Shown here piece after piece: positions 8,436-36,925 of a DNA stretch of 64,000 nucleotides (position 1 is its first letter; each line of letters opens with the position of its first letter). Source of the stretch: an uncultured Bacteroidota bacterium (GTDB lineage Bacteria; Bacteroidota; Rhodothermia; Balneolales; HLUCCA01); the NCBI GenBank assembly GCA_947085565.1, contig CAMTWZ010000007.1:18260-82259 (forward strand). The letters run 5' to 3'. The position numbers were made by a program, and so were the translations under genes. The notes under the pieces were generated by a model. It was not told the origin of the DNA. It worked only from the letters and a program-made list of their open reading frames with translations, and made no database searches.

Positions 8436-9319
8436 AAATTTTGCTTGGGATCGATGCTGGCGGCTCTAAATCCACCTTGATCGCCGTCGATACGCATTTG
8501 AAAGAACTATACCGCGACAGCGGCCCATCCATCCATGCCCGAATGATGCCCCTTGACGACCAGGTCGCCGGGGTGACGCGTCTGGTCGAAACCATGCGCA
8601 TTTCCCATCCGGATTGGGACATCGACGGACTTTGCCTGGGCGTTGCCGGCGGCGGGCGCAAGTTCGAGCAGGAACGGCTCACCGATTCACTCAGCGCCAT
8701 CTATCCGGATTGGAACATTCTGGTGACGTCAGACGCGCACATCGCCCACGCCGATGCCTTCGAGAACGGCGACGGTATCCTGGTGATCACCGGAACCGGA
8801 AGCATGGTTCTGGGTCGGGCTGGAACCCGTTGGGAGCGAGCCGGCGGATATGGATTCATCATCGGCGACCCTGCCGGCGGGTACCGCTTGGGTCAGGAAG
8901 CGCTCTTTGCGATGTGTACCGCCTTCGACGGCGGCGAATCGACCCTGCTCACAAGTCTGCTCGCGGAAGAATTCGACATCCGATCGCGCGACATGCTCAT
9001 CCAGAAAGTGTACGACAACGAACTGCTTCCTGCGAAACTCGCACCCTTGGTGTTGGATGCGGCCGACCACATGGATCCGGTGAGCTTGAGAATCCTGACT
9101 GAGAACACAGGACGTGTCGCCAATCAAATAAGCCTATGCGCGAACGCGTTGGGATTGAAGAGCACCCCGGTCTCCGTGATCGGTGGCTTGTTCAACAACG
9201 CCGTCTTCAAATATCATCTGATGGAGGCCGTGAACTCGAAAGTGGACGAGGTCTCATGGGCGGAGAAGAAAGCGGATCCCGCTTTGGGTGCCTGCCGCAT
9301 GATCTTGCACACCTCGTAA
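8432..9319 (+). CDS. BadF/BadG/BcrA/BcrD-type ATPase, N-acetylglucosamine(-like) kinase
   Basis: Trimmed to MKILLGIDAGGSKSTLIAV, which carries the ASKHA phosphate-1 motif, at 8432. ATGA overlap with the acylase stop. A second motif is LVITGTGS. Confidence 0.75.
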   Translation: MKILLGIDAGGSKSTLIAVDTHLKELYRDSGPSIHARMMPLDDQVAGVTRLVETMRISHPDWDIDGLCLGVAGGGRKFEQERLTDSLSAIYPDWNILVTSDAHIAHADAFENGDGILVITGTGSMVLGRAGTRWERAGGYGFIIGDPAGGYRLGQEALFAMCTAFDGGESTLLTSLLAEEFDIRSRDMLIQKVYDNELLPAKLAPLVLDAADHMDPVSLRILTENTGRVANQISLCANALGLKSTPVSVIGGLFNNAVFKYHLMEAVNSKVDEVSWAEKKADPALGACRMILHTS

Positions 9320-9339
9320 GCATCCCTTATTCCTATTTC

Positions 9340-12186
9340 ATGAAAAGATTTCCCATCGCCATTCTCATCGGCCTGTTTTCGTGCTCATCGGCCAGCACCG
9401 TGACGCTTCATGCGCCACCGGCGGAAACCCAAACCGATATCGACGCCCTTCTCGCCTCGCTCACCGTTCGCCAGAAAATAGCCCAAATGATGCATGTCTG
9501 GGCCTATGGAGAGTTCCAAGCCGACGAATCGGACCGCTTCAAACGCGTGGAACGCCTCGTCGTGGAAGATCAGATCGGCGGGTTCATCTTCTCGCGCGGA
9601 AACATCTACGACCAGGCCATCCTCACCAACAAACTGCAGACCTTGAGCCGCATTCCGCTTTGGATTTCGCAGGATATGGAGTTCGGCGCAGCCATGCGAA
9701 TCAACGGAACCACGCGTTTCGCCCCGGCCATGGCGCTCGCCGCCACGCGCGATCCAAAGCTTGATTACATGAAAGGGTATGTCACCGCCATGGAAGCGAA
9801 AGCCGTGGGTGTGCATCAGATTTTCGCTCCCGTCGTGGATGTGAACAACAACCCAGCCAACCCCGTGATCAACACCCGCAGTTATTCCGAAAACCCGGAA
9901 TTGGTCTCCCAATTCGGCGTGGAATTCATCCGAGGCGTGAAAGCGGCTGGACTCGTCTCCACCGCCAAGCATTTTCCGGGGCATGGCGACACCGCCACCG
10001 ACTCTCACATCGGGCTTCCTGTGATCAATCACGACTGGGCACGCTTGAGCAGCCTTGAATTGGTTCCCTTCCGCGCCGTGATCGATGCCGGTGTGGAAAG
10101 CGTGATGAGCGCACATATCTCTTTCCCGAAACTGGGAAGCGAACCCGGTCTGCCCGGAACCCTTGATCCGAAAATCCTGACCGGGCTGCTTCGAGACTCC
10201 CTCGGTTTCACCGGCTTGGTGACCACCGACGCCTTGGAGATGGAAGGTATTTCCGAGCACTACTCTCCTGGCGACGCCCTCATCCGCGCCATCCTCGCCG
10301 GCGCCGACATGCTCCTTATTCCTCCCGATGTGGCCACCAGTTTGGATGCGGCCGTTCTGGCGGTCGAGCGCGGACAGATTCCGATCGAACGCATCGACGC
10401 TTCCGTGCGTCGCATCCTTGAATGGAAAGCGAAAATGGGGCTTTTCACTCAGAACCAGGTGGACATCAACGCCCTTAGCCGGCTCGTTGCCCGCCCCGAG
10501 TACCAGCGCGCGGCCGATGAAGTCGCGAAACGGTCGATCACCGTCATCCGCAACCAGAATCAGATCATTCCGATCAAATCAGAACGTTTTCGCCGTATCA
10601 CGGCCATCTCCATGGCGGACGACCGCACCGGAAGCACCGGTTCCGGTTTCGCCACCGCTCTGCGCAGATATCATGGCGACGTGCGGTTCTGGTACCACGA
10701 CCAACGCAGCAAACCCGAAGATGTCGACGCGATTGTGAACGCGGCTTCCAGCGCGGATCTCATCGTTGTGGGATCGTTCGTGTTCCTGCAGACCTCCTCC
10801 GGCAAGATTTCTCTCACCAATGCGCAAAACCGTTTCCTGAAACGGCTCAAATCCACCGGCAAGCCGATCGTGCTGATCTCCTTCGGCAATCCGTACATCG
10901 TGATCGACCTTCCTGACGCCGATGTCCATCTTCTGGCTTGGGCGAACACCCAATCGCAGATCGAGGCCGCCACCAACGCGATGTTCGGCGCCACCACGAT
11001 CGACGGCAAACTGCCCATTTCCATCCCAGGTACCGTTTACAAATTCGGTGACGGCCTCACGATTCCGAAAATCCTCGTGCGTCCCGGCGCGCCCGAAGGC
11101 GTTGGATTATCGAGTGCGGCGCTCGACCGCATCCAAGGCATCATGGATACCGCCATCCGCGATTCCATCTTTCCGGGCGGCACGGTTACCGTCATCAAAG
11201 ACGGAGTGATCGCCTTCGAACGCGGATTCGGATACCATGATTACACCAAAACCAAGCGTGTTCACGCCAACGACATCTTCGATCTCGCATCGGTCAGCAA
11301 AGTGATGGGAACGACCCTCGCGGCCATGAAACTCGTGGACGAAGGCAAGCTCAGCCTCGAAGATCCTATCTCGAAATACATTCCCGAGTATGCTTCCGGA
11401 CCCAAAGCCTCCATCCGCATCCGCCATTTCCTATCCCATACCTCCGGCTTGCCGCCTTTCCGTGTGTATGTGGATTCATTGAAAACCCGGACTGCCATCC
11501 TGGCTGCCATCCGCAAAGAACCCCTCGTGAATGCGCCCGGCGAACGGTATGTTTACAGCGATCTGGGAATGATCCTGTTGGGAAGCATCATCGAGCAGAT
11601 CACCGGAATGGGTCAGGAAGCCTATCTGGCGCGCACATTTTACACGCCGATGGGGATGACATCCACGATGTATAACCCGCTCAAACGCAATCAGCAGCTG
11701 CTGAATCGCATTCTTCCCACCGAGCACGACACCATCTACCGCAAGATGTGGGTGCACGGCGTGGTTCACGACGAACGCGCCTATTACATGGACGGCGTGG
11801 CGGGACATGCCGGACTCTTCTCCACCGGCCGGGATGTGGCCTTCTTCGCACAACTGATGCTCGATAAAGGCATGTTCGGAGGCGTGCGGTATCTGAAAGC
11901 GGAAACCGTGGAACTGTTCACGGCGAAAACCTCCGCATCTGGCAGCCGCGCCATCGGATTCGACATGAAATCACCCACCGGATTCAGCTCCGCCGGAACG
12001 TTGGCGGGTCCACGCACATACGGACACACCGGCTTCACTGGAACCAGCATCTGGATCGATCCGGACAAGAACTTGGCCGTGATCGTACTCACCAACCGCA
12101 CCTATCCTTACCGGAAAACCAGCACGGGCGTGAATTCCGTAAGAGCGTCAGTGGGCGACCAAGTCTATCGCAGCCTTCTCCCATGA
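9340..12186 (+). CDS. Fusion protein: N-terminal GH3 beta-N-acetylhexosaminidase (NagZ-like) + C-terminal serine beta-lactamase/PBP4*-fold hydrolase
   Basis: Trimmed to MKRFPIAILIGLFSCSSAS (lipoprotein-like signal) at 9340. The GH3 motif is KHFPGHGDT. The C-terminal half carries SxxK (ASVSKVMG), YSD(L) and HTGFTG (KTG-like) motifs of class C/AmpH-type serine hydrolases. Confidence 0.85.
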   Translation: MKRFPIAILIGLFSCSSASTVTLHAPPAETQTDIDALLASLTVRQKIAQMMHVWAYGEFQADESDRFKRVERLVVEDQIGGFIFSRGNIYDQAILTNKLQTLSRIPLWISQDMEFGAAMRINGTTRFAPAMALAATRDPKLDYMKGYVTAMEAKAVGVHQIFAPVVDVNNNPANPVINTRSYSENPELVSQFGVEFIRGVKAAGLVSTAKHFPGHGDTATDSHIGLPVINHDWARLSSLELVPFRAVIDAGVESVMSAHISFPKLGSEPGLPGTLDPKILTGLLRDSLGFTGLVTTDALEMEGISEHYSPGDALIRAILAGADMLLIPPDVATSLDAAVLAVERGQIPIERIDASVRRILEWKAKMGLFTQNQVDINALSRLVARPEYQRAADEVAKRSITVIRNQNQIIPIKSERFRRITAISMADDRTGSTGSGFATALRRYHGDVRFWYHDQRSKPEDVDAIVNAASSADLIVVGSFVFLQTSSGKISLTNAQNRFLKRLKSTGKPIVLISFGNPYIVIDLPDADVHLLAWANTQSQIEAATNAMFGATTIDGKLPISIPGTVYKFGDGLTIPKILVRPGAPEGVGLSSAALDRIQGIMDTAIRDSIFPGGTVTVIKDGVIAFERGFGYHDYTKTKRVHANDIFDLASVSKVMGTTLAAMKLVDEGKLSLEDPISKYIPEYASGPKASIRIRHFLSHTSGLPPFRVYVDSLKTRTAILAAIRKEPLVNAPGERYVYSDLGMILLGSIIEQITGMGQEAYLARTFYTPMGMTSTMYNPLKRNQQLLNRILPTEHDTIYRKMWVHGVVHDERAYYMDGVAGHAGLFSTGRDVAFFAQLMLDKGMFGGVRYLKAETVELFTAKTSASGSRAIGFDMKSPTGFSSAGTLAGPRTYGHTGFTGTSIWIDPDKNLAVIVLTNRTYPYRKTSTGVNSVRASVGDQVYRSLLP

Positions 12187-13898: not shown

Positions 13899-15137
13899 GT
13901 GCCAGCCACTTCCTACAAAGTATTCACCGACCCCATCCACGGGTTCGTGCAGGTTCCCAAAGGCCTGATCTTGCGCCTGGTCGACCATCCCTATGTTCAA
14001 CGCTTACGGCGCATCCGCCAGCTCGGGCTTGGTTATCTCGTCTTTCCCGGTAGCGAACACTCCCGTTTTTCGCATGCTTTGGGTGCCTTAGGCCTGATGC
14101 AGCGCACGTTGGCCAGCCTTAAAGAGAAGAACACCACAATATCCAACGATGAGATGGAAGGTGCCATGGCCGCCATCCTTCTGCATGACATCGGTCACGG
14201 ACCCTTTTCCCATACACTCGAAAACACCTTCATCACCGATTTCCATCATGAGCAGATGACCTTGGCGCTCATGAAGAAACTCAATGAGGAATTCAACGGC
14301 GCGCTCAGCACGGCCATCGACATTTTCACGGGCCAGCATCCCAAACCCTTCCTTCATCAGCTCATCTCCTCCCAACTCGATATCGACCGCTTGGATTACA
14401 TCAAGCGCGACAGCATGTTCACCGGCGTGCTTGAGGGCGGAATCGGCATCGAACGCATCATCAAGACGATGAGGGTTCGCAAAGGCCAGATGGTGATCGA
14501 ACGCAAAGGCATCTACGCCATCGAAAACTACATTACCGCACGCCGGTTGATGTACATGCAAGTCTATCAGCATAAGACCGTTCTGAGTGCGGATAAACTG
14601 CTGAGAGCCATCCTGTTGCGCGTGGCGGATCTGATCAAGGCCGGAAAGAGTCCGTTCATCCCCTCACCCGCGCTGGATTGGTTCCTGAAAAACACCCCAT
14701 CCGGCAAGAAAGGACTCAGCGACCAAGTGATCAGCACCTATCAGATGCTCGATGACAATGATATTCTAATGGGAATCAAATATTGGTGCCATGAGAAAGA
14801 TCGGATTTTGTCTGACTTATGCCGCCGTTTTCTGGAGCGTCGTTTCTTCCGCACCACCTTCCTGAAACAGCCGATGAGCGAAACCCAGTGGGAGCAACTG
14901 CAAGCCGAAACACAAGCCATCACCGGTGGAAAATCTTCGATAATCGGCTACTATCTGTTCCATGACAACCTTTACAACGAAGCCTACCGCTATGAGAACG
15001 ACAGCATCTGGGTGCTGGATGAACCCGATACGGTCGTCGAGTTTTCCAAAGCGGCGGATACGAAAAGCATCCAGGCCCTCACCCAACCCGTGGTGAAGCC
15101 CTATATCGTCCATCTCAAGGAAGTGAAGGTTTTTTAA
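13899..15137 (+). CDS. HD-domain phosphohydrolase (dGTPase/SAMHD1-like dNTP triphosphohydrolase family)
   Basis: 412 aa. Motifs: DPIHG, HSRFSHALG, LLHDIGHGPFSH and DRLDYIKRD. Confidence 0.85.
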   Translation: MPATSYKVFTDPIHGFVQVPKGLILRLVDHPYVQRLRRIRQLGLGYLVFPGSEHSRFSHALGALGLMQRTLASLKEKNTTISNDEMEGAMAAILLHDIGHGPFSHTLENTFITDFHHEQMTLALMKKLNEEFNGALSTAIDIFTGQHPKPFLHQLISSQLDIDRLDYIKRDSMFTGVLEGGIGIERIIKTMRVRKGQMVIERKGIYAIENYITARRLMYMQVYQHKTVLSADKLLRAILLRVADLIKAGKSPFIPSPALDWFLKNTPSGKKGLSDQVISTYQMLDDNDILMGIKYWCHEKDRILSDLCRRFLERRFFRTTFLKQPMSETQWEQLQAETQAITGGKSSIIGYYLFHDNLYNEAYRYENDSIWVLDEPDTVVEFSKAADTKSIQALTQPVVKPYIVHLKEVKVF

Positions 15138-16408: not shown

Positions 16409-17748
16409 AGCTTCCCGGTCTGCTGCTGTTGATGTTCGTGATCTTGCCTCTCACCGCTTCAGCTCAGACCGACTCCGTGAGAGTGTATGTGGAACGGCAG
16501 GATTTCCAGTCTGCCATCCGCCTGTTGGACTCCGTTCTGACGCAAGACCCCGAAAATCCTGAATTGCGCTACCGATTGGCGCAAGTGACGGCATGGTCCG
16601 GCGCCTATCCCTCGGCGATCGCCATCCTTCGGAAACTGGTCGCTGACATCCCCTCCTATTCGGAGGCGGTCGTTCTTCTGGCAAGGGTCCATTCCTGGAA
16701 CGCCGATTACAATCAAGCCGAAACGCTCTATCGGAGCATCGTGAAAGAAGATCCCGCCTATGGCGATGCGCAAGCCGGATTGGCGCAATTGGCCTTCTAT
16801 AAAGGTGCGCTTAACGAAGCATACGTTCTTTCAAACTCTGTACTGGTCGATTTTCCCGAAAATGAAGTTGCCCTTCAAGTGAGAAACAGTATCCAAAAAG
16901 GGATGCGACCCGAATCGGAAACCCAATGGATGATGCCTTGGGATTCGGAAGGCAATCGCGGATGGGTCGTCTCCGAATCCGTGGGATTCGCACTCAGACC
17001 CGGACTTGGCGCCTTTGTGAAACTCCGTGCGGTGGACAATGGTGCCTCCGTATTCAGCTGGACGGGCGGCGCACGCTGGAGCCGATACTCCGCCTCGCTC
17101 GGAGCCAACGCCTACCGTCAGACGCGACGCATCGATCTGGAATTCTCCGGCTCCGCAAGGTTCGCAAATTCAGTGATATTCGCCAACCGCTACGGGCTCT
17201 TCGACAGCCAAGCCCTGATCGACAGAAACGTCAGCATCACTGAAATCGGGGGTATCCACCTGTACCGACGCGCCACACAAACCCTTACGTCCACATCCAC
17301 CTTCGCCGCGTACAGCACCGGCAACCAGCGCATCGCCGTAAGCCTCGACTACGACAAGTCGTTCGTGCTGGGCGAGGTCACCTTCCGTCCGGGTGCTGTG
17401 ACCTCGGTGTCCTCATTTCTGAAAAACGATCCCACAGGCGGATTTTTCGCACCCAAATGGTGGAACGTGTCTGCATTGAAAGCCGCCACGAACTATCGCC
17501 CGGCCACATCGCGCTTCCACGCATCACTCACCGCACAACTCGGTGCCCAAACCATCGCCCCGTACGGCGCCGAGCGCATCGGACCCGACCTGAGTTACTC
17601 TTTCGACCTCAGCGCCGGTTATACGCCTAGCCAAGACCTCCAAATCGTAGCAGGCTATCTGTACAGCACTCTGTTGAACACCACATCGCAGGCGAACGAT
17701 TCGTATTGGGCCCAGCGGTTGGGCATCAGGGTATTCATCCGATTCTAA
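16405..17748 (+). CDS. TPR-repeat + outer-membrane beta-barrel protein (YaiO/PgaA-like architecture)
   Basis: 447 aa with a signal peptide (LLLLMFVILPLTASAQ). It has about 150 aa of TPR-like helices, then about 270 aa of alternating-hydrophobic strands ending in …VFIRF (a C-terminal Phe, typical of OMPs). ATGA overlap with the upstream gene. Confidence 0.6.
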   Translation: MKLPGLLLLMFVILPLTASAQTDSVRVYVERQDFQSAIRLLDSVLTQDPENPELRYRLAQVTAWSGAYPSAIAILRKLVADIPSYSEAVVLLARVHSWNADYNQAETLYRSIVKEDPAYGDAQAGLAQLAFYKGALNEAYVLSNSVLVDFPENEVALQVRNSIQKGMRPESETQWMMPWDSEGNRGWVVSESVGFALRPGLGAFVKLRAVDNGASVFSWTGGARWSRYSASLGANAYRQTRRIDLEFSGSARFANSVIFANRYGLFDSQALIDRNVSITEIGGIHLYRRATQTLTSTSTFAAYSTGNQRIAVSLDYDKSFVLGEVTFRPGAVTSVSSFLKNDPTGGFFAPKWWNVSALKAATNYRPATSRFHASLTAQLGAQTIAPYGAERIGPDLSYSFDLSAGYTPSQDLQIVAGYLYSTLLNTTSQANDSYWAQRLGIRVFIRF

Positions 17749-19925
17749 TCGGCCGAAACCCAGCCGGTGTACGCATCCGGAAAATCATCGTCACCGAATC
17801 CGTACCATCCACGGATTCGCCAGGTATGGTAGGGTTTGGCATATTTCCCCAATCCCACCAGAAAGACGTTCTTTCCCGAAGCGGTGACATGCGGAACCAC
17901 GTTCGCGATGGATTTTAAGGTATCCAGATCATTCATAAACCGTCGAGCTTCCGCCTCCGTCCTGAATGTGCCGATCACCAGATGGTGGTACCCTTGGGTA
18001 AGGATCGAATCGGGTTGTACATGGCTGGTAGGCTTCATCACAAGATCCGCCGCCGGTGGTTTCGTTCCACCGGGCGCGTCGTACCTATCCGCGTAAGCGT
18101 CAGGGTAATCGCCAGGGCGCAACGCGTAGGCTCTCCTCATTGTGGCGGTGGTCAGCGGTGTGTCCGATCGTCCCACTCTCACGCGGAAGACGAGATAGCC
18201 GGAAGGAAGCGCATCCTTGACCACTTCGGCGCTGTCTCTAAGTGCTGCAGGCAATGATTCAAGGAAGCGGTTGGCATTGGATTCGGAAAGGAACGTGCCC
18301 AGCACCAGGTGATAATGGCCTTTGGAAAGCAACGATTCGAATGTGGGATCGGGTGATGCCGGGTCAGGCGATGGATCGAGCGTGGCATAGCGGATGGGGG
18401 CTTCAGGCCAGATCACAGCCCGGTACTTGTACATCACTCCGGATCCGATGAACAGAAACAGAAACAGGAAGCCGAACGGGAATTTCCGTGGTTCTTTCGG
18501 GGCGACCGGCTTCGCGGCGGCCTGTTTTGTAGCGGTTCCCAATCCTTTCCGGGTCATCTCACCCCAGGATTTGTTTCCCTTCAGGAAATCCACCAACCCC
18601 ATCAACCGCCACCACGAGTGCATCTGCCGGTAACCGAAATTCTCCAGCAAGGCATAGAAGAACATGATGAAGATGTGCCTTACCTGCGGATATCTGCGAT
18701 AGGTGAACTCTTCGCACAGTACGGAGGAAACTGACAAGACCATGCCTAAGAGGATGGATGCGGCCAGAAAAACGAGGGCGAATTCGATGTTGAGCGCTCC
18801 GAAAACCCAGGTGATGAACAGGAAGAAATAACCACCGACTTCGACGATGGGGCCGAGCATCTCAATGAAAAAGAAGAAGGGCATGGCGAAGAAACCGAGT
18901 CGGCCATAGGTCGGGTTGAACATCATTTTGCGATGGCGCCAAAGAGTGTCGGCCAAACCACGCTGCCAACGGTTCCGCTGCCGGGCAAGAACGGCTTTCG
19001 TCTCGGGGACTTCCGTCCAGCACACCGGTTCAGGGATGAATCGAACCCGGTAGGGAATCTTGTTCTCGCGGTAATACCGATGAAGCCGGACCACGAGCTC
19101 CATATCTTCGCCAACGGTGTCGTGCAGATAACCGCCCACTTTCAAGACCGCTTTGCGGTCGAACAGGCCGAAAGCGCCAGAAATGATGAGCAGACTGTCG
19201 AGATAATCCCATCCTACGCGTCCGAATAGAAATGCCCGGAGATACTCCACGACTTGGATCCGCGCGAGGAAGGATTTCGGCACGCGAATCTCTTTGAGTT
19301 CGTTGTTCTCGAAGATGCAATCGTTGGCGATGCGGACGATTCCACCGACCGCGATAGTGCTCTCATCTTCGATGAAGCAACGGATCATGCTTTGAAGCAC
19401 CAGCGGTTCAAGCACCGAATCAGCGTCTATCGAACAGATCAGATCGTTTCGGGAGACGTTGATTCCGACATTGAGCGCATCCGCTTTGCGTCCGTTTTCC
19501 TTGTCGACTACCAATAACTCGGGGTACAGATCCGATTTGTAGATCGCTTTGATCGGTTTGTGCGAAAGGATCAGAGGCACATACCGATCCACTTTCTTGA
19601 GCTTGAAATTCTCGATGAGGACATCCATCGTCCGGTCTTTGCTTCCATCGTTGATCACGATCACTTCATAGTTCGGAAACTGAAGCTGGAGAAGTGAACG
19701 TACCGAAGCCACCACCGTGCTTTCCTCGTTGTAGGCGGGCGCCAGGATGCTGATGGGATAGTAGAGATTGGAGCTGAACAGCCCGGAAAGGGAAAAGACA
19801 TCTTTCTGCTTGATCTGTTTTCGAATATGGAAAAAAGAAATCGTGATCAGCACCATGTACACCAGATTGATGGTGAGGAAATAGCTGATCACCGCATACT
19901 CGATGAACGTGAGGAAGATGTTCAT
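17745..19925 (-). CDS. Processive family-2 glycosyltransferase (PgaC/IcaA/cellulose-synthase-like) fused to two C-terminal SPOR-like domains
   Basis: 726 aa. GT2 motifs: INDGSKD, SIDADS (DxD), GEDMEL and RQRNRWQRG (QxxRW). TM helices lie at the N-terminus and at aa ~340-440, with an extra TM at aa ~482-498. After that come two ~70-aa repeats (HYHLVLGTFLSESNANRFL…FRVRVG and YHHLVIGTFRTEAEARRFM…FLVGLG) with the SPOR beta-alpha-beta-beta pattern. Confidence 0.85.
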   Translation of the reverse strand: MNIFLTFIEYAVISYFLTINLVYMVLITISFFHIRKQIKQKDVFSLSGLFSSNLYYPISILAPAYNEESTVVASVRSLLQLQFPNYEVIVINDGSKDRTMDVLIENFKLKKVDRYVPLILSHKPIKAIYKSDLYPELLVVDKENGRKADALNVGINVSRNDLICSIDADSVLEPLVLQSMIRCFIEDESTIAVGGIVRIANDCIFENNELKEIRVPKSFLARIQVVEYLRAFLFGRVGWDYLDSLLIISGAFGLFDRKAVLKVGGYLHDTVGEDMELVVRLHRYYRENKIPYRVRFIPEPVCWTEVPETKAVLARQRNRWQRGLADTLWRHRKMMFNPTYGRLGFFAMPFFFFIEMLGPIVEVGGYFFLFITWVFGALNIEFALVFLAASILLGMVLSVSSVLCEEFTYRRYPQVRHIFIMFFYALLENFGYRQMHSWWRLMGLVDFLKGNKSWGEMTRKGLGTATKQAAAKPVAPKEPRKFPFGFLFLFLFIGSGVMYKYRAVIWPEAPIRYATLDPSPDPASPDPTFESLLSKGHYHLVLGTFLSESNANRFLESLPAALRDSAEVVKDALPSGYLVFRVRVGRSDTPLTTATMRRAYALRPGDYPDAYADRYDAPGGTKPPAADLVMKPTSHVQPDSILTQGYHHLVIGTFRTEAEARRFMNDLDTLKSIANVVPHVTASGKNVFLVGLGKYAKPYHTWRIRGWYGFGDDDFPDAYTGWVSAD

Positions 19926-21034
19926 ACCACCTCCATCTCGTCACGGATCCGTCCGATGAGTTCCTGCAGCTCTTCGGTCTGCATCGCCAATTCGTCAAGG
20001 TTCGTCTGCCCTTCCGGGCCCATTGCCACCATGGCGAAAATCGCACGGATGCGCACATCCAACACTGGATCTTGGGCCAACTGCTTCAGATAGGGTAGGA
20101 AGCGGACATCATTGAACGCTTCGAAAGCCTGAGCGGTGCTTTTGCGGATTCGAGGATTGGCGTGACCTACGGTGGTATCGATCATCCAATCGCCGGCCGG
20201 ACCGAACTGAAACTGACCCATGGAATAAATCAGGGCATCGATCACCTCGTCATCCTCGGATCGGAATCCGGATTCGAGCAGGTCATAAAGCACCATGAGC
20301 AATTGCCCGTACCCGATGTCGGTGATGGCTCTGATCACCACGCCAATGTTATGAGCGGGGATCGAGGTATCCACCAAAAGCTTGGAGATGCACTCGGATT
20401 CCTCCTCGAACTGATCCAAAGCGAGGGTATGGAACCGATACATGATTTCGATCAGGGCAAGCCTTGATATCCGTGGATTGTGGACCACCTGGGTGAGCGC
20501 TTCGAACCGGATGCGGACCTCTTTGGAGGAAAGGAGTCCTGATGCCGCCGCATGAGCCAGCAACGGCGACGGCGATTTGACATACTGCCGGAGAAGCCGT
20601 AGCTCCTCATCATTGATGTCGATCACTTTCGAATAATACAGGCAAGCATCAATTCTCTGCTGATTCGCCGAAGATTTCAGCTTGGCGAAATAATGAGCCC
20701 GAATTCCCGGAAGGAAGAGCAAGGATTGGATCTTGGGCACTTCCTGACCGTCGAGTTGTGTCATCATGTCGGCAAGGATTTCCACAAACAGATCCATGTC
20801 GAATTCCGCTTTCACGGATTTTTCCATCCGTTCAATGGACTCATTCTCTCCGGTGATGTACTCGATGATGTATGTGTAGAACTGGTTTCGGCGTTTCGTC
20901 CTTTGTTTCTCCACATATCTGGAGGCATATCGGACGATCACCGAAGTGAAGAGCAGATACACCGACAGGATGGCAAGAAGCGAAGCAACGATATAGACGA
21001 ACCGGATGGCGTCGAAATCGTCACCGGAAACCAT
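19922..21034 (-). CDS. Single-TM HEAT/armadillo-like repeat protein
   Basis: 370 aa with an N-terminal TM helix (FVYIVASLLAILSVYLLFTSVIV). The rest is all-helical with repeated ~30-40-aa units (…NPRIRKSTAQAFEAFND…, …DPVLDVRIRAIFAMVAMG…) typical of HEAT repeats. 4-nt overlap with the GT2 start and 1-nt overlap with the receiver stop. Confidence 0.65.
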   Translation of the reverse strand: MVSGDDFDAIRFVYIVASLLAILSVYLLFTSVIVRYASRYVEKQRTKRRNQFYTYIIEYITGENESIERMEKSVKAEFDMDLFVEILADMMTQLDGQEVPKIQSLLFLPGIRAHYFAKLKSSANQQRIDACLYYSKVIDINDEELRLLRQYVKSPSPLLAHAAASGLLSSKEVRIRFEALTQVVHNPRISRLALIEIMYRFHTLALDQFEEESECISKLLVDTSIPAHNIGVVIRAITDIGYGQLLMVLYDLLESGFRSEDDEVIDALIYSMGQFQFGPAGDWMIDTTVGHANPRIRKSTAQAFEAFNDVRFLPYLKQLAQDPVLDVRIRAIFAMVAMGPEGQTNLDELAMQTEELQELIGRIRDEMEVV

Positions 21035-21411
21035 TATTTCTCCAAAGCCCTGGTGATGCGCATCATCAGCTCTCCGAGCTTGAAAGGTTTAGAGATATAT
21101 TCGAGAACTCCCATGGAGAATCCTCTTTGCAGGTCCTCTTCCCGGTTTTTCGAAGTGAGCATGATCACTTTGAGGTGGCGTGTTTTCTCATCGTCGCGAA
21201 TGGCCTGCAACACCTCGAAACCGCCGATGCCGGGAAGCATCACGTCGAGCAAAATCAGATCCGGCATGAGTTCGAACGCCTTGGCCAAACCTTCCACTCC
21301 GTTGGCCGCAATCACCACATCCATATTCTCATGATTGAGTTTGAACTCAACAAGTCTGGAAATTCCGGGGTTGTCTTCGATTAAAAGGACTTTAGGTCGT
21401 GTTGATGTCAT
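21034..21411 (-). CDS. Stand-alone response-regulator receiver (CheY-like)
   Basis: 125 aa. Motifs KVLLIEDN, LILLDVMLPG (phospho-Asp) and SKPF. There is no output domain. Confidence 0.9.
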   Translation of the reverse strand: MTSTRPKVLLIEDNPGISRLVEFKLNHENMDVVIAANGVEGLAKAFELMPDLILLDVMLPGIGGFEVLQAIRDDEKTRHLKVIMLTSKNREEDLQRGFSMGVLEYISKPFKLGELMMRITRALEK

Positions 21412-22539: not shown

Positions 22540-24940
22540 CCTGATACCGTTTTGCCACTTGGGTTAGTTGAAAATAATCGGCTCTCTGCAGAATGGAGGT
22601 GAACAGTTCCGCCACGGATTCGAACCCGGCGATAGGTTCGGCACTGCGCATGATCTCCAAGATCGCGTCAAAATCCTGCTCCTCCATCGCTGCATTGATG
22701 CGAAGTTGGGACTCTTTCGGAAAAGTACGCAAATACGCCACGATATCGTCAACACCCACATCTTTGGAATCAGGTTCGGCAGCCATTTCTTCGTAAGTGA
22801 ATTCCACCCCTATCAGTTTACCGATGAGCTCGAGCAGATCCGGCTCATAAAACGGTTTGCGCACATATTCGGTGAATCCCTGGCGCTTGAGTTCCACATT
22901 TTTACCTTCGAAGCCGCTGGCGGTGAGTGCGATGATGGGGACCGTTTTGCCTGTCGGCAATTCCCGGATCTTCAGCATGGCACCGATTCCGTCCAGTACG
23001 GGCATGATGATATCCATCAACACCAAATCGAAGGGTTTGGCGGCGAACGCATCCACGGCGACCTGGCCGTTTTCGGCTTCTTCCACCTCGAAGCCGATCG
23101 CTTCCAGCATCACACGGGCCACTTCGCGGTTCGGAGGAACATCATCCACAACCAGAATTCGAGGATTCTTATTCTTACTGATACCGGTGATCTGCTTAGG
23201 ATGCTGGCGGCTTCCGGAAAACACCGCTGTTGACGCTCTGAGGGGGATTTCCACCCGGAAATTCGACCCTTGCCCGACCACGCTCGACACCGAAATCCTG
23301 CCTCCCATCAATTCGCTGAGTTTCCGGCTGATCGCCAACCCCAAGCCCGTGCCTTCCTGATATTTACCTTTCACTTGCTGGAACGGTGAGAAAATCGCCT
23401 CCAACGAATCGGCCGGAATTCCAGCGCCGGTGTCGATCACATCAAACACAAGGTCGTAGGTGCCTGAATACTGCAATTTGAGCGTCACACTTCCTGTGGA
23501 TGTGAACTTGATGGCGTTTCCAATCAGATTGATCAGGATCTGACGGAGTTTGTTCGGATCGCCGACCACCGCGCCCGGCAGAGGATCTTGGAAATCCGTC
23601 TTCAGCGCGATTCCTTTCTCCTTGCATTTCAGATTGAACATTGACTGAAGGTCCTGAAGCAATTCCGGAAGATTGAAATCCACCTCGATAAGATCCATCT
23701 TGCCGGATTCGATCTTCGAGATATCCAGGATGTCGTTGATCATGTTCAGAAGGTGATGCCCGCTTCGATACATGGTTCCGACATATTGCTGCTCCTGATC
23801 GACCAGGTTCTTGCTTTTCTGAAGGATCTGGGCATAACCGAGAACCGCGTTCAACGGAGTGCGGAGCTCGTGGGAGATCCGTGCCAGGAACGAGCTCTTC
23901 GCTTCACTGGCCTCTATGGCGCGTTTGCGCGCCTCAACCAATTCATCGATCCGGTAGGCCACCAAAATGAAGCGGTTTCCGCCATCGTCGTCGGGCATGG
24001 AATGGATCATCCAGCTCAGAGAGTGTTCGGTTCCGTCGCGCGTGATGAGGGTGTCTTCGGTTTTGACAACATCCAGTCCGTTTCTGGCATCTTTGAACCC
24101 GTCTTTGAAGGCCAGATACAATTCAGGGTAAACCTCGGGGAAAGGCAAGCCGGATTTGAGTTCCCCATCGGGTTGGAAATCATCGCCGAAGCGGCGGCTG
24201 AACGTCTGGATATTCAGATAATCACCTAACAGCATCATCGGTATGGGTGCGTTTCGGATCAGCGATTCCAACTGAGCGCGTTCCACACGCAGCGAGGCTT
24301 CCACTTTCTTGCGCGCCTTGATATCCCTGAACAGGATGAAACTGGTAACCAGGATCAGGACGATGGCGATCACGGTTTCGGCAAGTATGATCATCGACGA
24401 ACGCCGGAAAGAGGCATCGGCCAGAAGAAGCCGTTCATTCAGATAATCGTTCTCCAGCTTTTGCATGTAGATCACCACTTCCCGCACATCCGACATGGCC
24501 TCGGCGCCGGACCCCGAATTGGTCATTTCCGCGGCTTGAGCGAACCCTTCCCGACTTCTGACATTGATCGTCGATTCCATGATCTGGAACTTGGCGTACA
24601 CACGGATCCTCAATGAATCCATATACGCCCTGGCTTGCTCATCGCGGATCAGAGAATAAAAGGATACCAGTTGAGCGTCGATTTTCAGTTTCGCTCTCTG
24701 GTAAGGCGCCAGATAGGATGAATCTCCGGTGATTACGAAACCGCGCTCGGACGTTTCCATGTCGGTGACGAGGATCAGAAGATCGTTCAGCTCGGAAACC
24801 AGCTGCTGGGTACGGGTCACCTCATCCAAATGCTCGCCGATGGCGTTATTGCCTCGTATACTTGCCCATGCTATAAGTGCAAGCACCAGGACCGCGACCG
24901 CGAATCCGACGTAAACCCGCATTTCGACTTTTTCTCTCAT
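22532..24940 (-). CDS. Hybrid sensor histidine kinase: CHASE3-TM-PAS-HisKA-HATPase_c-REC + ~100-aa helical tail
   Basis: 802 aa. The N-terminal TM is followed by a CHASE3-like periplasmic segment (…METSERGFVITGDSSYLAPY…) and a second TM. The H-box is ISHELRTPLN and the G-box GTGLGLAISRKL. The receiver has ILVVDD…LVLMDIIMPVLDG. ATGA overlap with the folA stop. Confidence 0.9.
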   Translation of the reverse strand: MREKVEMRVYVGFAVAVLVLALIAWASIRGNNAIGEHLDEVTRTQQLVSELNDLLILVTDMETSERGFVITGDSSYLAPYQRAKLKIDAQLVSFYSLIRDEQARAYMDSLRIRVYAKFQIMESTINVRSREGFAQAAEMTNSGSGAEAMSDVREVVIYMQKLENDYLNERLLLADASFRRSSMIILAETVIAIVLILVTSFILFRDIKARKKVEASLRVERAQLESLIRNAPIPMMLLGDYLNIQTFSRRFGDDFQPDGELKSGLPFPEVYPELYLAFKDGFKDARNGLDVVKTEDTLITRDGTEHSLSWMIHSMPDDDGGNRFILVAYRIDELVEARKRAIEASEAKSSFLARISHELRTPLNAVLGYAQILQKSKNLVDQEQQYVGTMYRSGHHLLNMINDILDISKIESGKMDLIEVDFNLPELLQDLQSMFNLKCKEKGIALKTDFQDPLPGAVVGDPNKLRQILINLIGNAIKFTSTGSVTLKLQYSGTYDLVFDVIDTGAGIPADSLEAIFSPFQQVKGKYQEGTGLGLAISRKLSELMGGRISVSSVVGQGSNFRVEIPLRASTAVFSGSRQHPKQITGISKNKNPRILVVDDVPPNREVARVMLEAIGFEVEEAENGQVAVDAFAAKPFDLVLMDIIMPVLDGIGAMLKIRELPTGKTVPIIALTASGFEGKNVELKRQGFTEYVRKPFYEPDLLELIGKLIGVEFTYEEMAAEPDSKDVGVDDIVAYLRTFPKESQLRINAAMEEQDFDAILEIMRSAEPIAGFESVAELFTSILQRADYFQLTQVAKRYQDV

Positions 24941-25416
24941 GATGACGAATGCAAACGATGATAGACCACGAACGACATTCCGTCTGCCGCTCTTCGCGAC
25001 ACTTCCTTCCAGACCTTTCCGATACCGTGTCTGTATTCAGGAAAATATACATCACCTTCATGAATCCCAACGACTTCCGTGACAATCATCTCGTCGATGT
25101 AGGGCATGATGGATTCGTATAATTTCGATCCGCCGATCACAAACACTTTCTCGTATTTCGAAAGATAAGTCATGGCTTCCGGAATAGACTCAAAACTTTT
25201 GACGTTTTCCCATTTTTTGGATGAGATCACGAAATTCTCCCTTCCGGGCAGCGGTTTCTCGCCCAATTCCTCATACACGCCTCTACCCATGAGGATGGGA
25301 TGTCCCATGGTGGTTTGCTTGAAATGACGCATGTCTTCGGGCTGTTTCCAGGGTAGCCCACCCTTGTTTCCGATCACCAACGCCTCATCGTGCGCGACGA
25401 TCAGAACCCATCTCAT
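24937..25416 (-). CDS. folA: Dihydrofolate reductase
   Basis: 159 aa. The pattern (IVAHDEALVIGNKGGLPW…, …VIGGSKLYE…) is typical of DHFR. It lies immediately downstream of thyA with a 4-nt overlap. Confidence 0.9.
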   Translation of the reverse strand: MRWVLIVAHDEALVIGNKGGLPWKQPEDMRHFKQTTMGHPILMGRGVYEELGEKPLPGRENFVISSKKWENVKSFESIPEAMTYLSKYEKVFVIGGSKLYESIMPYIDEMIVTEVVGIHEGDVYFPEYRHGIGKVWKEVSRRAADGMSFVVYHRLHSSS

Positions 25417-26228
25417 ACCGCGACCTCGAATTTGATTCCAGGGTCGGGGTCATAACCGGTCAATACGAAATCGTCGAATCCGAGCTCATCCAGAGGCTTT
25501 TTCGCCACAGTGAGTGCGGGCAAAGGCTTGGGCGTTCTCTTGAGCTGCTCTTTGAGTCCATCCACATGGTTCACATAGATGTGCGCATCCACGATGGTAT
25601 GGGCGAATTCACCCGGCTCCAAACCCACTTCCTGCGCGATGGCGATGGTGAGTGCCGAATAACAGGCCAGATTGAACGGGATGCCCAAGGCGATGTCTCC
25701 CGAACGTTGCGTGAGGTGGCAATTCAGGCGCCCCTTGCTCACATTGAACACAAAAAGAATATGGCAAGGCGGAAGCGCCATGTGCTTGAGCATTCCCGGA
25801 TGCCAGGCGCTCACCACGATCCGACGACTGTTCGGATTGGTCTTCAATGTGTGCACAGCCTCTTTGATCTGATCGACCGTGGTCACCTCTCCGCTCGGAT
25901 CCGTGTAGGGATCACCGACCGGAAACTTGCGCCACATCACCGGATAAATCGGCCCGACGTGGCCATCTTCACGCGCCCACGCATCCCAGATGTGGCAATT
26001 GTTCTCGTCGCGAAGCCAACGGATGTGGTCTTCGCCCCTGAGATACCATAAAAGCTCAAGAATGACCGATCTGAAATGCACTTTTTTCGTGGTCAGCAAC
26101 GGGAATCCTTCCGCCAAATCCACCTTGTAGAATTCCGCGAAGGAGGAAATGGTGTCGATTCCGGTCCGGTTATGCTTAAGTTCCCCGTTTTCAAGAACCC
26201 GGGCCACCAAGTCGTGATAGGCTTTCAT
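25413..26228 (-). CDS. thyA: Thymidylate synthase (ThyA type)
   Basis: Trimmed to MKAYHDLVARVLENG at 26228 (ATGA overlap with the ilvE stop). Motifs: FPLLTTKKVHF, LPPCH and QRSGDIALGIPFN. Confidence 0.95.
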   Translation of the reverse strand: MKAYHDLVARVLENGELKHNRTGIDTISSFAEFYKVDLAEGFPLLTTKKVHFRSVILELLWYLRGEDHIRWLRDENNCHIWDAWAREDGHVGPIYPVMWRKFPVGDPYTDPSGEVTTVDQIKEAVHTLKTNPNSRRIVVSAWHPGMLKHMALPPCHILFVFNVSKGRLNCHLTQRSGDIALGIPFNLACYSALTIAIAQEVGLEPGEFAHTIVDAHIYVNHVDGLKEQLKRTPKPLPALTVAKKPLDELGFDDFVLTGYDPDPGIKFEVAV

Positions 26229-27310
26229 CGCGCATCTCCGAGAAGGCGTGTCCAACCGTGGGTGTCCGCGATGTCACCATGGTGCCATCCGGTGATGGTA
26301 TCGTACAAGCGTTGTGAAAGCGGACCCATTCTCTCCATGCCCAGTTCCACGACTGAACCGTTGTGATGGATGAGTCCGACGGGCGAAATCACCGCGGCGG
26401 TTCCTGAGGCGAACACTTCCGTCAGCCTTCCGTTATTCCCTGCTTCAAGCACTTCATGGATGGAAATGACGCGTTCTTCAACGGGAAGACCGAAATCTTT
26501 CGCCAGAGTCAGCACGCAATCGCGAGTCACTCCGCTCAGGATGCTATCGGTGAGTGCGGGTGTGACCAATGTTCCGTCGATCACGAAAAAGATGTTCGAG
26601 GTGCCCACTTCCTCGATGTAGGTGCGCTCTTTGGCATCCAGCCATAGAACCTGCGCGTACCCTTTTTCCATGGCTTGAAATGAGGGTTTGAGCGTCGCGG
26701 CATAATTGCCCGGACTCTTGGCACTTCCGGTTCCGCCTCTCATGGCACGGGCGTATTCAGGCATCGTGGTCAGCTTCACCGGCTTGATGCCTTCGGCGTA
26801 GTAATTTCCCACCGGGCCACCGATCACCATGAACCGATATCGCGTCGACGGGCGTACGCCCAAATAAGGCTCCGCCGCGATGATGAACGGACGGATGTAG
26901 TAGCTCTTGTACCGGTCGTTGGGCACCCACGCCGAATCCATGCTTAGTAAAGTGTCGATCGCTTCGAACCAAGCCTCGCGTGGAAGCGGTGGAATACTCA
27001 TGCGCTCGCAAGAAGCAAGGAACCGCTCATAGTGGCGGTCGGCGCGAAACACATTCACTCGCCCGTCTTTGTAGCGGAAGGCTTTGAGCCCTTCGAACAC
27101 CGCCTGACCGTAATGCAGCACGCTCAGCGCCGGACTGAGTTGGATCGGTCCGAACGGGATGATCTCCCCTTGTTGCCAATCTTTATTCTCAAATATGACC
27201 TGAGCCATGTGATCGGAAAACACCTCACCGAAGCGGAGGGTTGAGAAATCGACGGAAGAGACATTGGATGAGGCGGCGGCTGTGATTCGAAACGGTGTCG
27301 TCATAGTCAT
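26225..27310 (-). CDS. ilvE: Branched-chain amino-acid aminotransferase (class IV, long form)
   Basis: 361 aa. Fold-type IV PLP pattern (…YGQAVFEGLKAFR…, …GTGSAKSPGNYA…, …EVGTSNIFFV…). Confidence 0.9.
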   Translation of the reverse strand: MTMTTPFRITAAASSNVSSVDFSTLRFGEVFSDHMAQVIFENKDWQQGEIIPFGPIQLSPALSVLHYGQAVFEGLKAFRYKDGRVNVFRADRHYERFLASCERMSIPPLPREAWFEAIDTLLSMDSAWVPNDRYKSYYIRPFIIAAEPYLGVRPSTRYRFMVIGGPVGNYYAEGIKPVKLTTMPEYARAMRGGTGSAKSPGNYAATLKPSFQAMEKGYAQVLWLDAKERTYIEEVGTSNIFFVIDGTLVTPALTDSILSGVTRDCVLTLAKDFGLPVEERVISIHEVLEAGNNGRLTEVFASGTAAVISPVGLIHHNGSVVELGMERMGPLSQRLYDTITGWHHGDIADTHGWTRLLGDAR

Positions 27311-34674: not shown

Positions 34675-35948
34675 CAGGGTTTTCCTAAAAGTCGGAACAT
34701 GGCTTTCTTGTAGGCTTCCACTCCGGGCTGGTCAAAGGGATTCACGCCCAAGGCATACCCATAGACTCCGGTGGCCAATTCGAACATGTAGATTAGTGAG
34801 CCAAGGGTGTTGGCGTTCAGACGGTCCAGGCGGATGCCGATCACGGGAACCCCGCCCTCGATATGCGCCTGCCGTGTGCCTTCATACGCCTTGGAATTGA
34901 CCTCATGCATGGTTTTTCCGGAAAGATAATTCAATCCGTCAAAGTCCACCGATTCCGATTTGAGAACCAGGTCGCTGACAGGCTCATCCACCACCAGAAA
35001 CGTCTCTATGATGTTCCGAACGCCGTCTTGGACCATCTGTCCGAGGCTGTGCAAGTCGGAGGAATACCCGTGAACGGCTGGATAAAGCCCTTTATGCTCT
35101 TTTCCTTCGCTTTCTCCGAACAATTGCTGCATCCATCCACCAAAAGCCTTGAGCTCGGGTTCGAACGAAGCGATCACATCCACACGGTAACCGGCCTCAT
35201 AGAGCGCGAGGCGGGCCGTCGCATACTCGAACACATCCCCTTTTCCGCCATCGGTATCGCGAAACGCCTGAACGGCGCCGTAAAACAGCTCGCGGATGTC
35301 GATTCCCGCCACCGCGATGGGCAGCAACCCGACGGGCGTGAGAACGGAAAAGCGTCCGCCGACATCGTCGGGAAGCACGAACTTGCGATATCCGTTCGCT
35401 TCGATCACATTGTTGAGCGCGCCGCCTTTTTCAGACGTGGTGCAGATGATGCGGCTTGCCGCCACTTTCTCGCCATAGGCTTGATTCATCCACTGACGCA
35501 GCACGCGGAAAGCCAACGCGGTTTCGGTGGTGGTGCCCGATTTGGAGATCACGTTCATCCAAACGCGCTTTCCTTCCAAATGGACGAGCAGCTCTTTGAG
35601 ATATCGGGCACTCATCTGGTGACCCGCATACACAATTTCAGGTCCGTTGGAGCCGAAAAACGGTCCCAAAGCCTCGATAACCGCCCGGGCGCCGAGATAG
35701 GAGCCGCCGATGCCGCAGACGATGAACACATCCGCTTCATTGCGGATGGTGGCCGCCAGGGTATCGAGCTCGTTAAGCAGGGCGTCGTCGGGCGAGGCGA
35801 GAATCCGGCGCCAGCCGAGCCATTCCGGACCTTTTCCTGTACCTGTCTTTAGTTCGTTGAACGCGTGATCGATGCGTACGCGTGTCGATTCAAACGATTG
35901 TGCGGGGAGAAACGCCCGTGCCGCACTCACATCCGTGTGAATAGCCAT
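34674..35948 (-). CDS. pgi: Glucose-6-phosphate isomerase (short, ~424-aa type)
   Basis: Track ORF 34674..36173 trimmed to MAIHTDVSAARAF at 35948. The upstream 75 codons overlap pfkA out of frame. Motifs: GIGGSYLG, SKSGTTTE, DVGGRFSVL. Confidence 0.9.
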   Translation of the reverse strand: MAIHTDVSAARAFLPAQSFESTRVRIDHAFNELKTGTGKGPEWLGWRRILASPDDALLNELDTLAATIRNEADVFIVCGIGGSYLGARAVIEALGPFFGSNGPEIVYAGHQMSARYLKELLVHLEGKRVWMNVISKSGTTTETALAFRVLRQWMNQAYGEKVAASRIICTTSEKGGALNNVIEANGYRKFVLPDDVGGRFSVLTPVGLLPIAVAGIDIRELFYGAVQAFRDTDGGKGDVFEYATARLALYEAGYRVDVIASFEPELKAFGGWMQQLFGESEGKEHKGLYPAVHGYSSDLHSLGQMVQDGVRNIIETFLVVDEPVSDLVLKSESVDFDGLNYLSGKTMHEVNSKAYEGTRQAHIEGGVPVIGIRLDRLNANTLGSLIYMFELATGVYGYALGVNPFDQPGVEAYKKAMFRLLGKP

Positions 35949-36925
35949 CAGCTTAAGATTTTTGCGAGCTCGAGAAGCTCGTAATTGATACTTTTTTTCT
36001 TGGACCAGACGGTGTTGATCGGCGAGATGCGCATCTTGTTGTCGATCACGCCGACCATGACGTTGGTGTGTCCGTCGAGCAGCGCCTGAACGGCGGCGGC
36101 ACCTAGGCGGCTGGCCAAGACTCTGTCGCGCGCGGTGGGCTGTCCGCCGCGCTGGATATGTCCCAAAATGCACACACGCATCTCGTATTTGCCGAAATCC
36201 TCTTTTAGCTGCTCGCCAAGTTTGTACGCGCCACCGGTTTCGTCACCCTCGGCGACCACCACCAGGCTGCTTCGACGCTGCGCGCGGAACACTTCCGTGA
36301 GCGAGGCCTTGATGTCTGCGATCTCGGTGAGGGCTTCCGGCAGAAGAATGAGCTCCGCTCCGCCTGCGATTCCGGTTTCCAGGGCGATGAAGCCCGCTTC
36401 GCGGCCCATCACTTCCACCAGGAACAGACGCTCATGGGCGTCGGCCGTGTCGCGGATCTTGTCGATGGCTTCCATCGCCGTGTTCAATGCTGTGTCGTAG
36501 CCGATGGTCTCATCCGTACCCGACAAATCATTGTCGATGGTGCCCGGAATTCCGATCACCAGCACGCCGTGCTCTTCGTTGAGCTTGGTGGCGCCTTGGA
36601 AAGTTCCGTCGCCGCCGATGCCGATCACCGCGTCGATGCCGTAGGCTTTGATGTTGGCCGCGGCCAAGGCCCGTCCTTCCACTGTGCGGAAATCATCGGA
36701 ACGGGCGGATTTGAGAATCGTACCGCCTTGTTGAATGATGTTGGAGACCGAAGTGCTGTCCATGTCCACGAAATCTCCGCGGATCATGCCTTGGTATCCG
36801 TAACGGATACCCACCACCTGCAAATCGTTGTATCGTGCGGTCCGGACAACGGCTCTCACAGCCGCATTCATGCCCGGAGAATCCCCTCCGCTGGTAAACA
36901 CCCCTATTTTTTTGATCGATTTCAC
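35948..36925 (-). CDS. pfkA: ATP-dependent 6-phosphofructokinase
   Basis: Only the C-terminal 325 codons of track ORF 35948..37840 are real. The GTG start at 36925 gives VKSIKKIGVFTSGGDSPGMNAA. Motifs: GGDGT, PGTIDND, MGR. The upstream 305 codons are antisense to ispB. Confidence 0.9.
   Translation of the reverse strand: MKSIKKIGVFTSGGDSPGMNAAVRAVVRTARYNDLQVVGIRYGYQGMIRGDFVDMDSTSVSNIIQQGGTILKSARSDDFRTVEGRALAAANIKAYGIDAVIGIGGDGTFQGATKLNEEHGVLVIGIPGTIDNDLSGTDETIGYDTALNTAMEAIDKIRDTADAHERLFLVEVMGREAGFIALETGIAGGAELILLPEALTEIADIKASLTEVFRAQRRSSLVVVAEGDETGGAYKLGEQLKEDFGKYEMRVCILGHIQRGGQPTARDRVLASRLGAAAVQALLDGHTNVMVGVIDNKMRISPINTVWSKKKSINYELLELAKILS

Follow-up and report, generated by a model that had tools for sequence, protein, structure and literature searches.

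We analysed a 64,000-nt stretch of DNA (the window) from an uncultured bacterium of the Balneolales, phylum Bacteroidota (contig CAMTWZ010000007.1, positions 18,260 to 82,259), in which three consecutive genes encode a stand-alone receiver (REC), a HEAT-repeat protein with one transmembrane (TM) helix and a membrane polysaccharide synthase of glycosyltransferase family 2 (GT2) (Table 1). Reading the bases at the two junctions, we found that the REC stop codon (TAA, 21036-21034) has 1 nt in common with the HEAT start codon (ATG, 21034-21032; junction TAATG) and that the HEAT stop codon (TGA, 19924-19922) has 4 nt in common with the GT2 start codon (ATG, 19925-19923; junction ATGA), as a preliminary description of this DNA had reported. 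Overlapping stop and start codons are common in operons.

We therefore read the gene contexts of 28 loci (L001-L028), which comprise ~18 distinct modules whose HEAT proteins are 22-69% identical to that of the window. The loci were reached by exact look-up of distant HEAT members, by a metagenome scan with a different HEAT sub-family (7 loci) and by starting from GT2; the window and L001-L026 were analysed uniformly with six-frame open reading frames (ORFs) and phmmer, and gene calls were used for L027 and L028. REC was immediately upstream and GT2 immediately downstream of HEAT in 28/28 loci, wherever the contig reaches, with junction gaps of -32 to +57 nt (medians +3 and -4). REC always adjoined HEAT in the loci read and was never 3' of GT2. 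Starting from the synthase gave the same picture, as the GT2 homologues of Gracilimonas sp. Q87 and Rhodohalobacter barkolensis were both preceded by REC-HEAT. The preliminary description had named a HEAT protein and receiver lying away from GT2 genes as the finding that would speak against a link, and no such case occurred among the 28 loci read. One and the same order with tiny gaps, in each of ~18 modules at 22-69% HEAT identity, exceeds chance.

The 14 close HEAT relatives from a word-index search were rejected as independent evidence of this linkage, since the gene order around them follows that of the window throughout, for more than 20 kb and with the housekeeping genes (fabD-fabG-acpP-fabF-rnc-ilvE-thyA-folA) included, and this shows only their synteny. 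A word-index profile search with a broader HEAT alignment added nothing useful, and a narrow-alignment HEAT profile scan of genome contigs gave two loci. The members with taxon names are all Balneolales (Rhodohalobacter, Gracilimonas and metagenome-assembled genomes (MAGs) of Balneolaceae) or unclassified Bacteroidota MAGs. One locus (L002, CAYPOI010000017.1) is labelled 'uncultured Chitinophagales bacterium', yet its genes match those of the Balneolales MAG L001 one for one, in the same order and at near-identical coordinates; either the taxonomic label or the binning thus seems to be at fault.

In the 15 complete modules compared, pairwise identity averaged 62% for GT2, 49% for REC and 29% for HEAT, and the pairwise identities correlated at 0.87-0.92 across the three protein pairs (REC-HEAT 0.92, REC-GT2 0.91). 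Hence, the three genes are passed on and diverge together, HEAT being the fastest to evolve. The linkage also persists while kinases, porin and flanks vary, so the core unit consists of three genes and REC-HEAT-GT2 is an irreducible conserved unit. The functional link proposed in the preliminary description thus gains strong support as to coupling from the strict co-occurrence, and its gating part stays conjectural. We found no description of a receiver-HEAT-GT2 module in the literature searched, a search that most subscription journals lie outside.

The reading that we favour, and to which we give about an even chance, is that the three genes encode a single functional unit, in which an inner-membrane synthase of the HAS/PgaC/BcsA type has two dedicated regulatory subunits and the receiver acts as a phospho-switch.

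Table 1. Genes of the module and its surroundings, in window coordinates
Feature	Coordinates	Strand	Basis
Stand-alone receiver (REC), single-domain response regulator, 125 aa	21034..21411	-	Sequence and ORF list, Pfam
One-TM HEAT/alpha-solenoid protein, 370 aa	19922..21034	-	Sequence and ORF list, AlphaFold2, Pfam
Processive membrane GT2 polysaccharide synthase (from its model), 726 aa	17745..19925	-	Pfam, NCBIfam, AlphaFold2
Cytoplasmic REC-HisKA-HATPase kinase, 375 aa	21412..22539	-	Pfam
CHASE3-HisKA-HATPase-REC hybrid sensor kinase, 802 aa	22532..24940	-	Pfam
Signal-peptide protein with N-terminal TPR repeats and beta-rich C-terminal half, 447 aa	16405..17748	+	Pfam, NCBIfam
Membrane-anchored protein without recognisable domain, 411 aa	15173..16408	+	Pfam, NCBIfam, PDB
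HD/HD_assoc_2 protein	13899-15137	+	Pfam
thyA and folA	24937-26255	-	Overlapping gene pair

The synthase matches the Pfam families Glycos_transf_2, Glyco_trans_2_3, Chitin_synth_2 and SPOR. D93, D167-x-D169, E273-D274 (in GED, 272-274) and Q316-R-N-R-W320 are invariant in 28 GT2 homologues. Its best NCBIfam match is PgaC_IcaA (TIGR03937) at 141.9 bits (E 2.6e-41), below the cutoff of 422.3, which leaves it outside that family. Searching with the core of its AlphaFold2 model, Foldseek returned HAS as the best match, followed by BcsA and chitin synthases (E 1e-16 to 1e-10). The GT-A motifs and the TM channel that define processive, membrane-integrated GT2s of the BcsA/HAS/CHS/PgaC type are both found; judged by the model, GT2 is a processive, channel-forming synthase. 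Its polymer is probably a beta-linked chain of the N-acetylhexosamine (HexNAc) type, which is suggested solely by the similarity to PgaC, HAS and chitin synthases.

Beyond the core (residues ~1-450), the GT2 model continues with a linker that is disordered and of low confidence, then one more TM helix (483-505) and a pair of SPOR-like regions (~537-615 and ~645-724); this C-terminal third (residues ~483-726) corresponds to 17745-18480 of the window. SPOR matches in Pfam at 28 bits, and the model contains two beta-alpha-beta units. As modelled, the SPOR-like pair would put a septal-peptidoglycan-binding module in the periplasm. This fold invites another account, in which REC and HEAT would be a device for localisation or timing (e.g. 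at the septum via SPOR), or would feed synthase activity back to the kinases, instead of gating catalysis. Eukaryotic alpha-solenoid partners do localise or activate GT2 synthases, as Chs4/Skt5 does for chitin synthase 3 and CSI1 for cellulose synthase. We consider this account rather improbable: SPOR is confined to some relatives of the window's type, GT2 ranges from 468 to 826 aa among relatives, and most module GT2s, at 468-548 aa, lack SPOR, yet REC and HEAT are kept.

The HEAT protein begins with a hydrophobic segment (~12-34) followed by a basic cluster, RYASRYVEKQRTKRR. Its AlphaFold2 model (pLDDT 87.8) has a long N-terminal helix (5-61) and then ~19 short helices that form a solenoid, for which Foldseek matched alphaRep, designed armadillo proteins and importin-alpha. 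The segment and the model agree with the one N-terminal TM helix and helical repeats described earlier. The HEAT_2 match (PF13646; 33.7 bits against a gathering cutoff of 27.7) places it among HEAT-repeat proteins. Pfam HEAT_2/HEAT cover only 253-339 (HEAT_2 itself 253-335), and sequence methods taken together reach no further than the last approximately three repeats (253-343); the remaining repeats were recognised by structure alone, and residues 1-250, including the best-conserved block (161-180), matched no Pfam family.

An exhaustive HMMER profile search for this family gave ~60 full-length clusters of 330-400 aa, TM helix included. Beyond these, the matches drop sharply to long generic multi-HEAT proteins that align only over ~285-350. 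HEAT_2 was matched in 57/63 family members, and all 63 aligned proteins have a single N-terminal TM helix. The net charge after the TM helix exceeds that before it in 62/63 (means +3.8 and -1.1). Since the positive-inside rule is followed in these 62 proteins, a cytoplasmic solenoid is predicted: the topology would be N-out/C-in, with the TM helix, a juxtamembrane stalk and a ~310-aa solenoid on the same side as REC and the GT domain. Only two residues are near-universal among the 63 members, which are 17-69% identical: the juxtamembrane R35 (98%; ~20930 in the window) and G96 (100%; ~20747). This one-TM HEAT family, previously unannotated, marks the module together with its matched single-domain receiver.

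In synthase-dependent systems, activation or stability of the synthase generally depends on a co-subunit in the inner membrane, alongside a signal input from the cytosol (PMC8892547), and HEAT might be no more than such a co-subunit: a constitutive structural co-polymerase comparable to PgaD, IcaD, BcsB or PelE, with the receiver acting directly on GT2 as PilZ does. In keeping with this, the HEAT/GT2 junction is the tighter one, overlapping in 14/20 loci with measured junctions, and REC diverges with GT2 as closely as it does with HEAT. We hold this explanation unlikely because a ~310-aa cytoplasmic solenoid far exceeds what a membrane stabiliser needs, alpha-solenoids are typical protein-docking scaffolds and REC lies always beside HEAT, never after GT2; these points are not decisive.

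The receiver has Pfam Response_reg over residues 8-119 (89 bits) and nothing else in its 125 aa, in line with the absence of an output domain noted in the preliminary description. It has the acidic pair E12/D13, the phospho-acceptor D56, T86, Y105 and K108, and all 15 aligned module receivers retain these positions, with T or S at 86 and Y or F at 105. Hence, REC has what marks a stand-alone (CheY-like) response regulator, i.e. a receiver-only architecture, an acidic pocket, the phospho-acceptor Asp, T/S and Lys. The module receivers also have invariant residues on alpha1 (L20, K24 and L25) and on alpha4-beta5-alpha5 (D93, F98, F110 and R118, with Y or F at position 105). Alpha1 and alpha4-beta5-alpha5 are the usual kinase-docking and output faces of receivers. 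By sequence, the nearest PDB relatives of REC are PleD REC1, RpaA and CheY-like receivers. The module receivers score 68-260 bits against the window REC and 22-67 bits against the REC domains of kinases. From these residues and scores, the module receiver appears to be a functional, canonical receiver that is phosphorylatable and specific to the module.

Known stand-alone receivers that work through contact with another protein offer a precedent for such a protein. REC resembles those of CheY-FliM, DivK and CpdR in its receiver-only architecture and D-D-D-T-K chemistry, with the aromatic switch residue (105) conserved. The difference is that none of these is known to target a polysaccharide synthase or a HEAT protein, and the target of REC is proposed here from gene linkage alone.

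In the window, the REC-kinase stop codon (21414-21412) abuts the REC start codon (TGAATG). The overlap is 8 nt between the two kinase genes and 4 nt at both folA/kinase and thyA/folA. Seven minus-strand genes form one abutting or overlapping string: thyA-folA-CHASE3 hybrid kinase-REC-kinase-REC-HEAT-GT2. The housekeeping genes thyA and folA are apparently in the same overlapping string as the signalling and synthase genes, an order kept in L001-L008. A scan of 13.5-27.5 kb for sigma-70 promoters and terminators gave no more promoters than the shuffled expectation and revealed no clear operon boundaries; it is uninformative for this lineage.

The REC-kinase is directly upstream of REC in the loci of the window's type (L001-L011), where the CHASE3 hybrid kinase is kept as well. 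A kinase is divergent in L012, and none adjoins the module in L014, L016, L017, L027 and L028; the kinases were rejected as part of the core unit on the basis of these last five loci. We considered whether the hybrid kinase ends in an HPt domain and rejected this, as its last ~90 aa contain no His and the C-terminal 92 aa have no Pfam match at E<=10. In the window-type module, the 375-aa REC-kinase is likely the cognate kinase of the receiver, and the CHASE3 hybrid kinase is likely the periplasmic input sensor.

This arrangement, in which REC directly follows two kinases, one a hybrid without HPt, is also what one would expect if the receiver were a phosphorelay element or a phosphate sink for these kinases, with its output elsewhere (e.g. 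in transcription) and its linkage to HEAT-GT2 a matter of co-expression. Single-domain receivers are often sinks or shuttles. Such a role is highly improbable for this receiver, which stays with HEAT-GT2 in the five loci where no kinase is nearby, co-diverges with HEAT and GT2, and has an alpha4-beta5-alpha5 face with conserved D93, F98, Y105, F110 and R118.

For cellulose, poly-N-acetylglucosamine (PNAG), alginate and Pel, the post-translational activating signal is cyclic di-GMP (c-di-GMP) (PMC8892547). Searching Pfam and NCBIfam at E<=0.01, we found no PilZ, GIL, MshEN or GGDEF domain in GT2, HEAT, REC, the two kinases or the products of the three convergent genes; a recognisable receptor module in the synthase or an operon partner, by which a c-di-GMP-gated synthase is known, is thus absent from these proteins. 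PgaC-PgaD is also without a recognisable c-di-GMP domain (PMC8892547) and is nevertheless regulated. Hence, the absence of a c-di-GMP domain here does not prove the absence of c-di-GMP control. A composite site of the PgaC-PgaD type has no sequence signature, and the near-invariant Arg35 of HEAT is compatible with one. We infer that control by phosphorylation may replace control by c-di-GMP in this module, as had been proposed in the preliminary description.

Synthase-dependent systems share a synthase, an inner-membrane co-subunit (BcsB, Alg44, PelE or PgaD), c-di-GMP sensing, TPR scaffolds with a porin, and a periplasmic hydrolase (PMC8892547). Judged from its genes, the locus has a synthase, a candidate co-subunit and a TPR/porin candidate, with a phosphorylatable receiver where the others have a c-di-GMP module.

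Among these systems, PgaC-PgaD/IcaA-IcaD includes the curated family closest to GT2 (TIGR03937). Both synthases are without a fused signalling domain, and both have a separately encoded, adjacent membrane co-subunit (a candidate here) and a TPR/porin export partner (for which the PgaA-like match is weak). They differ in that the module here contains a phosphorylatable receiver, while the input of PgaCD is c-di-GMP (PMC8892547). No match to the small two-TM co-subunit PgaD/IcaD was found in Pfam or NCBIfam at E<=0.01, and the sole adjacent membrane partner is the 370-aa HEAT protein. The earlier suggestion that HEAT occupies the PgaD/IcaD position is thus a loose analogy: it holds in that HEAT is an adjacent membrane protein, and it fails in that HEAT is encoded upstream instead of downstream, is ~3x larger, has one TM helix and shows no homology.

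In E. coli, the cytosolic BcsE, which has a degenerate REC, is brought to the machinery of cellulose synthesis at the membrane by the single-pass BcsF, encoded adjacently (PMC7439463). The Bcs system (BcsA, BcsE-BcsF and BcsRQ) resembles the module in its processive GT2 of similar fold and in its pairing of a receiver-fold regulator with a single-pass membrane partner. In contrast to BcsE, whose REC is degenerate and whose signal is c-di-GMP, the phospho-site of the module REC is intact, and neither a GGDEF nor a GIL domain accompanies it; BcsF is a short peptide whereas HEAT is a large solenoid, and the module lacks both a synthase PilZ domain and BcsB. BcsE-BcsF is, by analogy, the nearest documented functional counterpart.

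The Pel system (PelD-PelE-PelF-PelG in the inner membrane) is likewise a synthase complex of several proteins, with a membrane-anchored alpha-helical repeat subunit, PelE, and a separate signal receptor, PelD (PMC8892547). The TPR part of PelE is periplasmic (PMC8892547), whereas the HEAT solenoid is predicted to be cytoplasmic; in addition, PelF is a GT4 and not a channel-forming GT2, and the Pel receptor binds c-di-GMP.

In structure, the GT2 model comes closest to class I HAS and chitin synthases (8smp and 7sp9; TM-score on target up to 0.69), in which a single polypeptide both makes and translocates a HexNAc-containing polymer; Pfam Chitin_synth_2 also matches GT2. They are 12-16% identical to GT2 in sequence, and HAS works without co-subunits. 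In yeast, Chs3 is regulated by the solenoid protein Chs4/Skt5, a parallel that we offer as analogy only.

Returning to the reading of REC-HEAT-GT2 as a synthase with two regulatory subunits, the single TM helix of HEAT would be anchored beside the TM domain of the synthase, with the cytoplasmic solenoid lying under the membrane next to the GT domain. The receiver would be phosphorylated on D56, in the window most plausibly by a route from the CHASE3 hybrid kinase through the REC-kinase to the receiver, and in other module types by kinases encoded elsewhere. In one of its phosphorylation states, the receiver would dock on the solenoid and/or the synthase and so would switch polymerisation or translocation on or off post-translationally. 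The polymer may then exit via the convergently encoded TPR/beta-barrel protein.

Several points weigh against this reading, above all against the contacts that it calls for. The REC-HEAT and HEAT-GT2 contacts are ones that we infer, as are the sign of regulation, the phosphodonor and the polymer. Among the best 150 HEAT-family matches, there are no REC-HEAT or HEAT-GT2 fusions. Co-divergence is similarly high for all three protein pairs, so it singles out no REC-HEAT interface. Arg35 may belong to a site for a small ligand, of the kind proposed for PgaC-PgaD, and not to one for the receiver. The linkage was sampled within one order, and therefore vertical inheritance of the operon explains part of its constancy; the sample from the GT2 side consists of two loci only.

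Three plus-strand genes, which encode the HD/HD_assoc_2 protein, the 411-aa protein and the 447-aa TPR protein, converge on the GT2 gene. The 447-aa protein matches TPR_19 and others in Pfam, has weak matches to the TPR regions of PgaA, BcsC and PrsT in NCBIfam, and ends in ...RVFIRF. It is a probable outer-membrane export porin with a putative barrel; no Pfam barrel was matched in this protein, nor YaiO even at E<=10. Its positional equivalents in two loci (L014, 10723-11964; L027, 10722-11924) are TPR proteins whose C-terminal part matches Pfam YaiO, an outer-membrane barrel. The orientation of the porin gene differs: it is convergent in the window, L010 and L014 and co-directional in L027, and in L028 there is no such gene next to the module. 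With GT2, a HEAT co-subunit candidate and a TPR/porin candidate, the locus has the components of synthase-dependent exopolysaccharide secretion, the window barrel being the putative one.

The 411-aa protein had no match in Pfam, NCBIfam or the PDB. The stop codon of its gene and the start of the TPR/porin gene share 4 nt. The two genes stay together in window-type loci, L010 (33% identity) among them, and the 411-aa gene is absent from other module types. It is possible that this membrane-anchored protein is a periplasmic accessory of the export path. A scan of the genes flanking the module, as distinct from every ORF of the window, found no polysaccharide-deacetylase (PgaB/IcaB) domain.

The flanks of the module vary (thyA/folA, purL or ddl). 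In three loci, a Sulfatase(+TPR) protein of 816-824 aa adjoins the triplet (L017, 266-2740; L020, 1673-4120; L027, 11921-14395), which we take to resemble the polymer-modifying phosphoethanolamine transferases of the BcsG type. Elsewhere in the window, a plus-strand gene (9136-12186) encodes a 1016-aa fusion of glycoside hydrolase family 3 (N- and C-terminal domains) with a beta-lactamase/PBP-like domain. Close relatives also have this fusion in the vicinity of the module (L003-L008, 951-953 aa), and the enzyme may serve in peptidoglycan recycling. A minus-strand gene (35948-37840) encodes a 630-aa phosphofructokinase whose PFK domain is limited to residues 311-587, and the 310-aa N-terminal extension has no Pfam match.

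A broader proposal, which we advance tentatively and regard as somewhat doubtful, is that Balneolales synthases run on two-component phosphorylation instead of c-di-GMP. Each synthase would have a private CheY-like receiver, which in its phosphorylated form would dock on the HEAT solenoid to open or close the synthase. There would be at least four types of this module (with kinases and SPOR; with a YaiO porin and sulfatase-TPR protein; as a bare triplet; and with a long HEAT protein), and one phospho-switch per polymer. If this is true, a synthase with an obligate receiver and HEAT scaffold would be a case of direct two-component control of polymerisation, and polysaccharide synthases would be a class of response-regulator output that we did not find described in the literature searched. 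The ~60 one-TM HEAT clusters with their matched receiver form a compact, testable family, with Gracilimonas sp. Q87 and Rhodohalobacter barkolensis as cultured carriers that are open to genetic and biochemical work. Even if the mechanism is wrong, the module would still be a specific genomic marker for an uncharacterised clade of polysaccharide synthases in halophilic and marine Balneolales.

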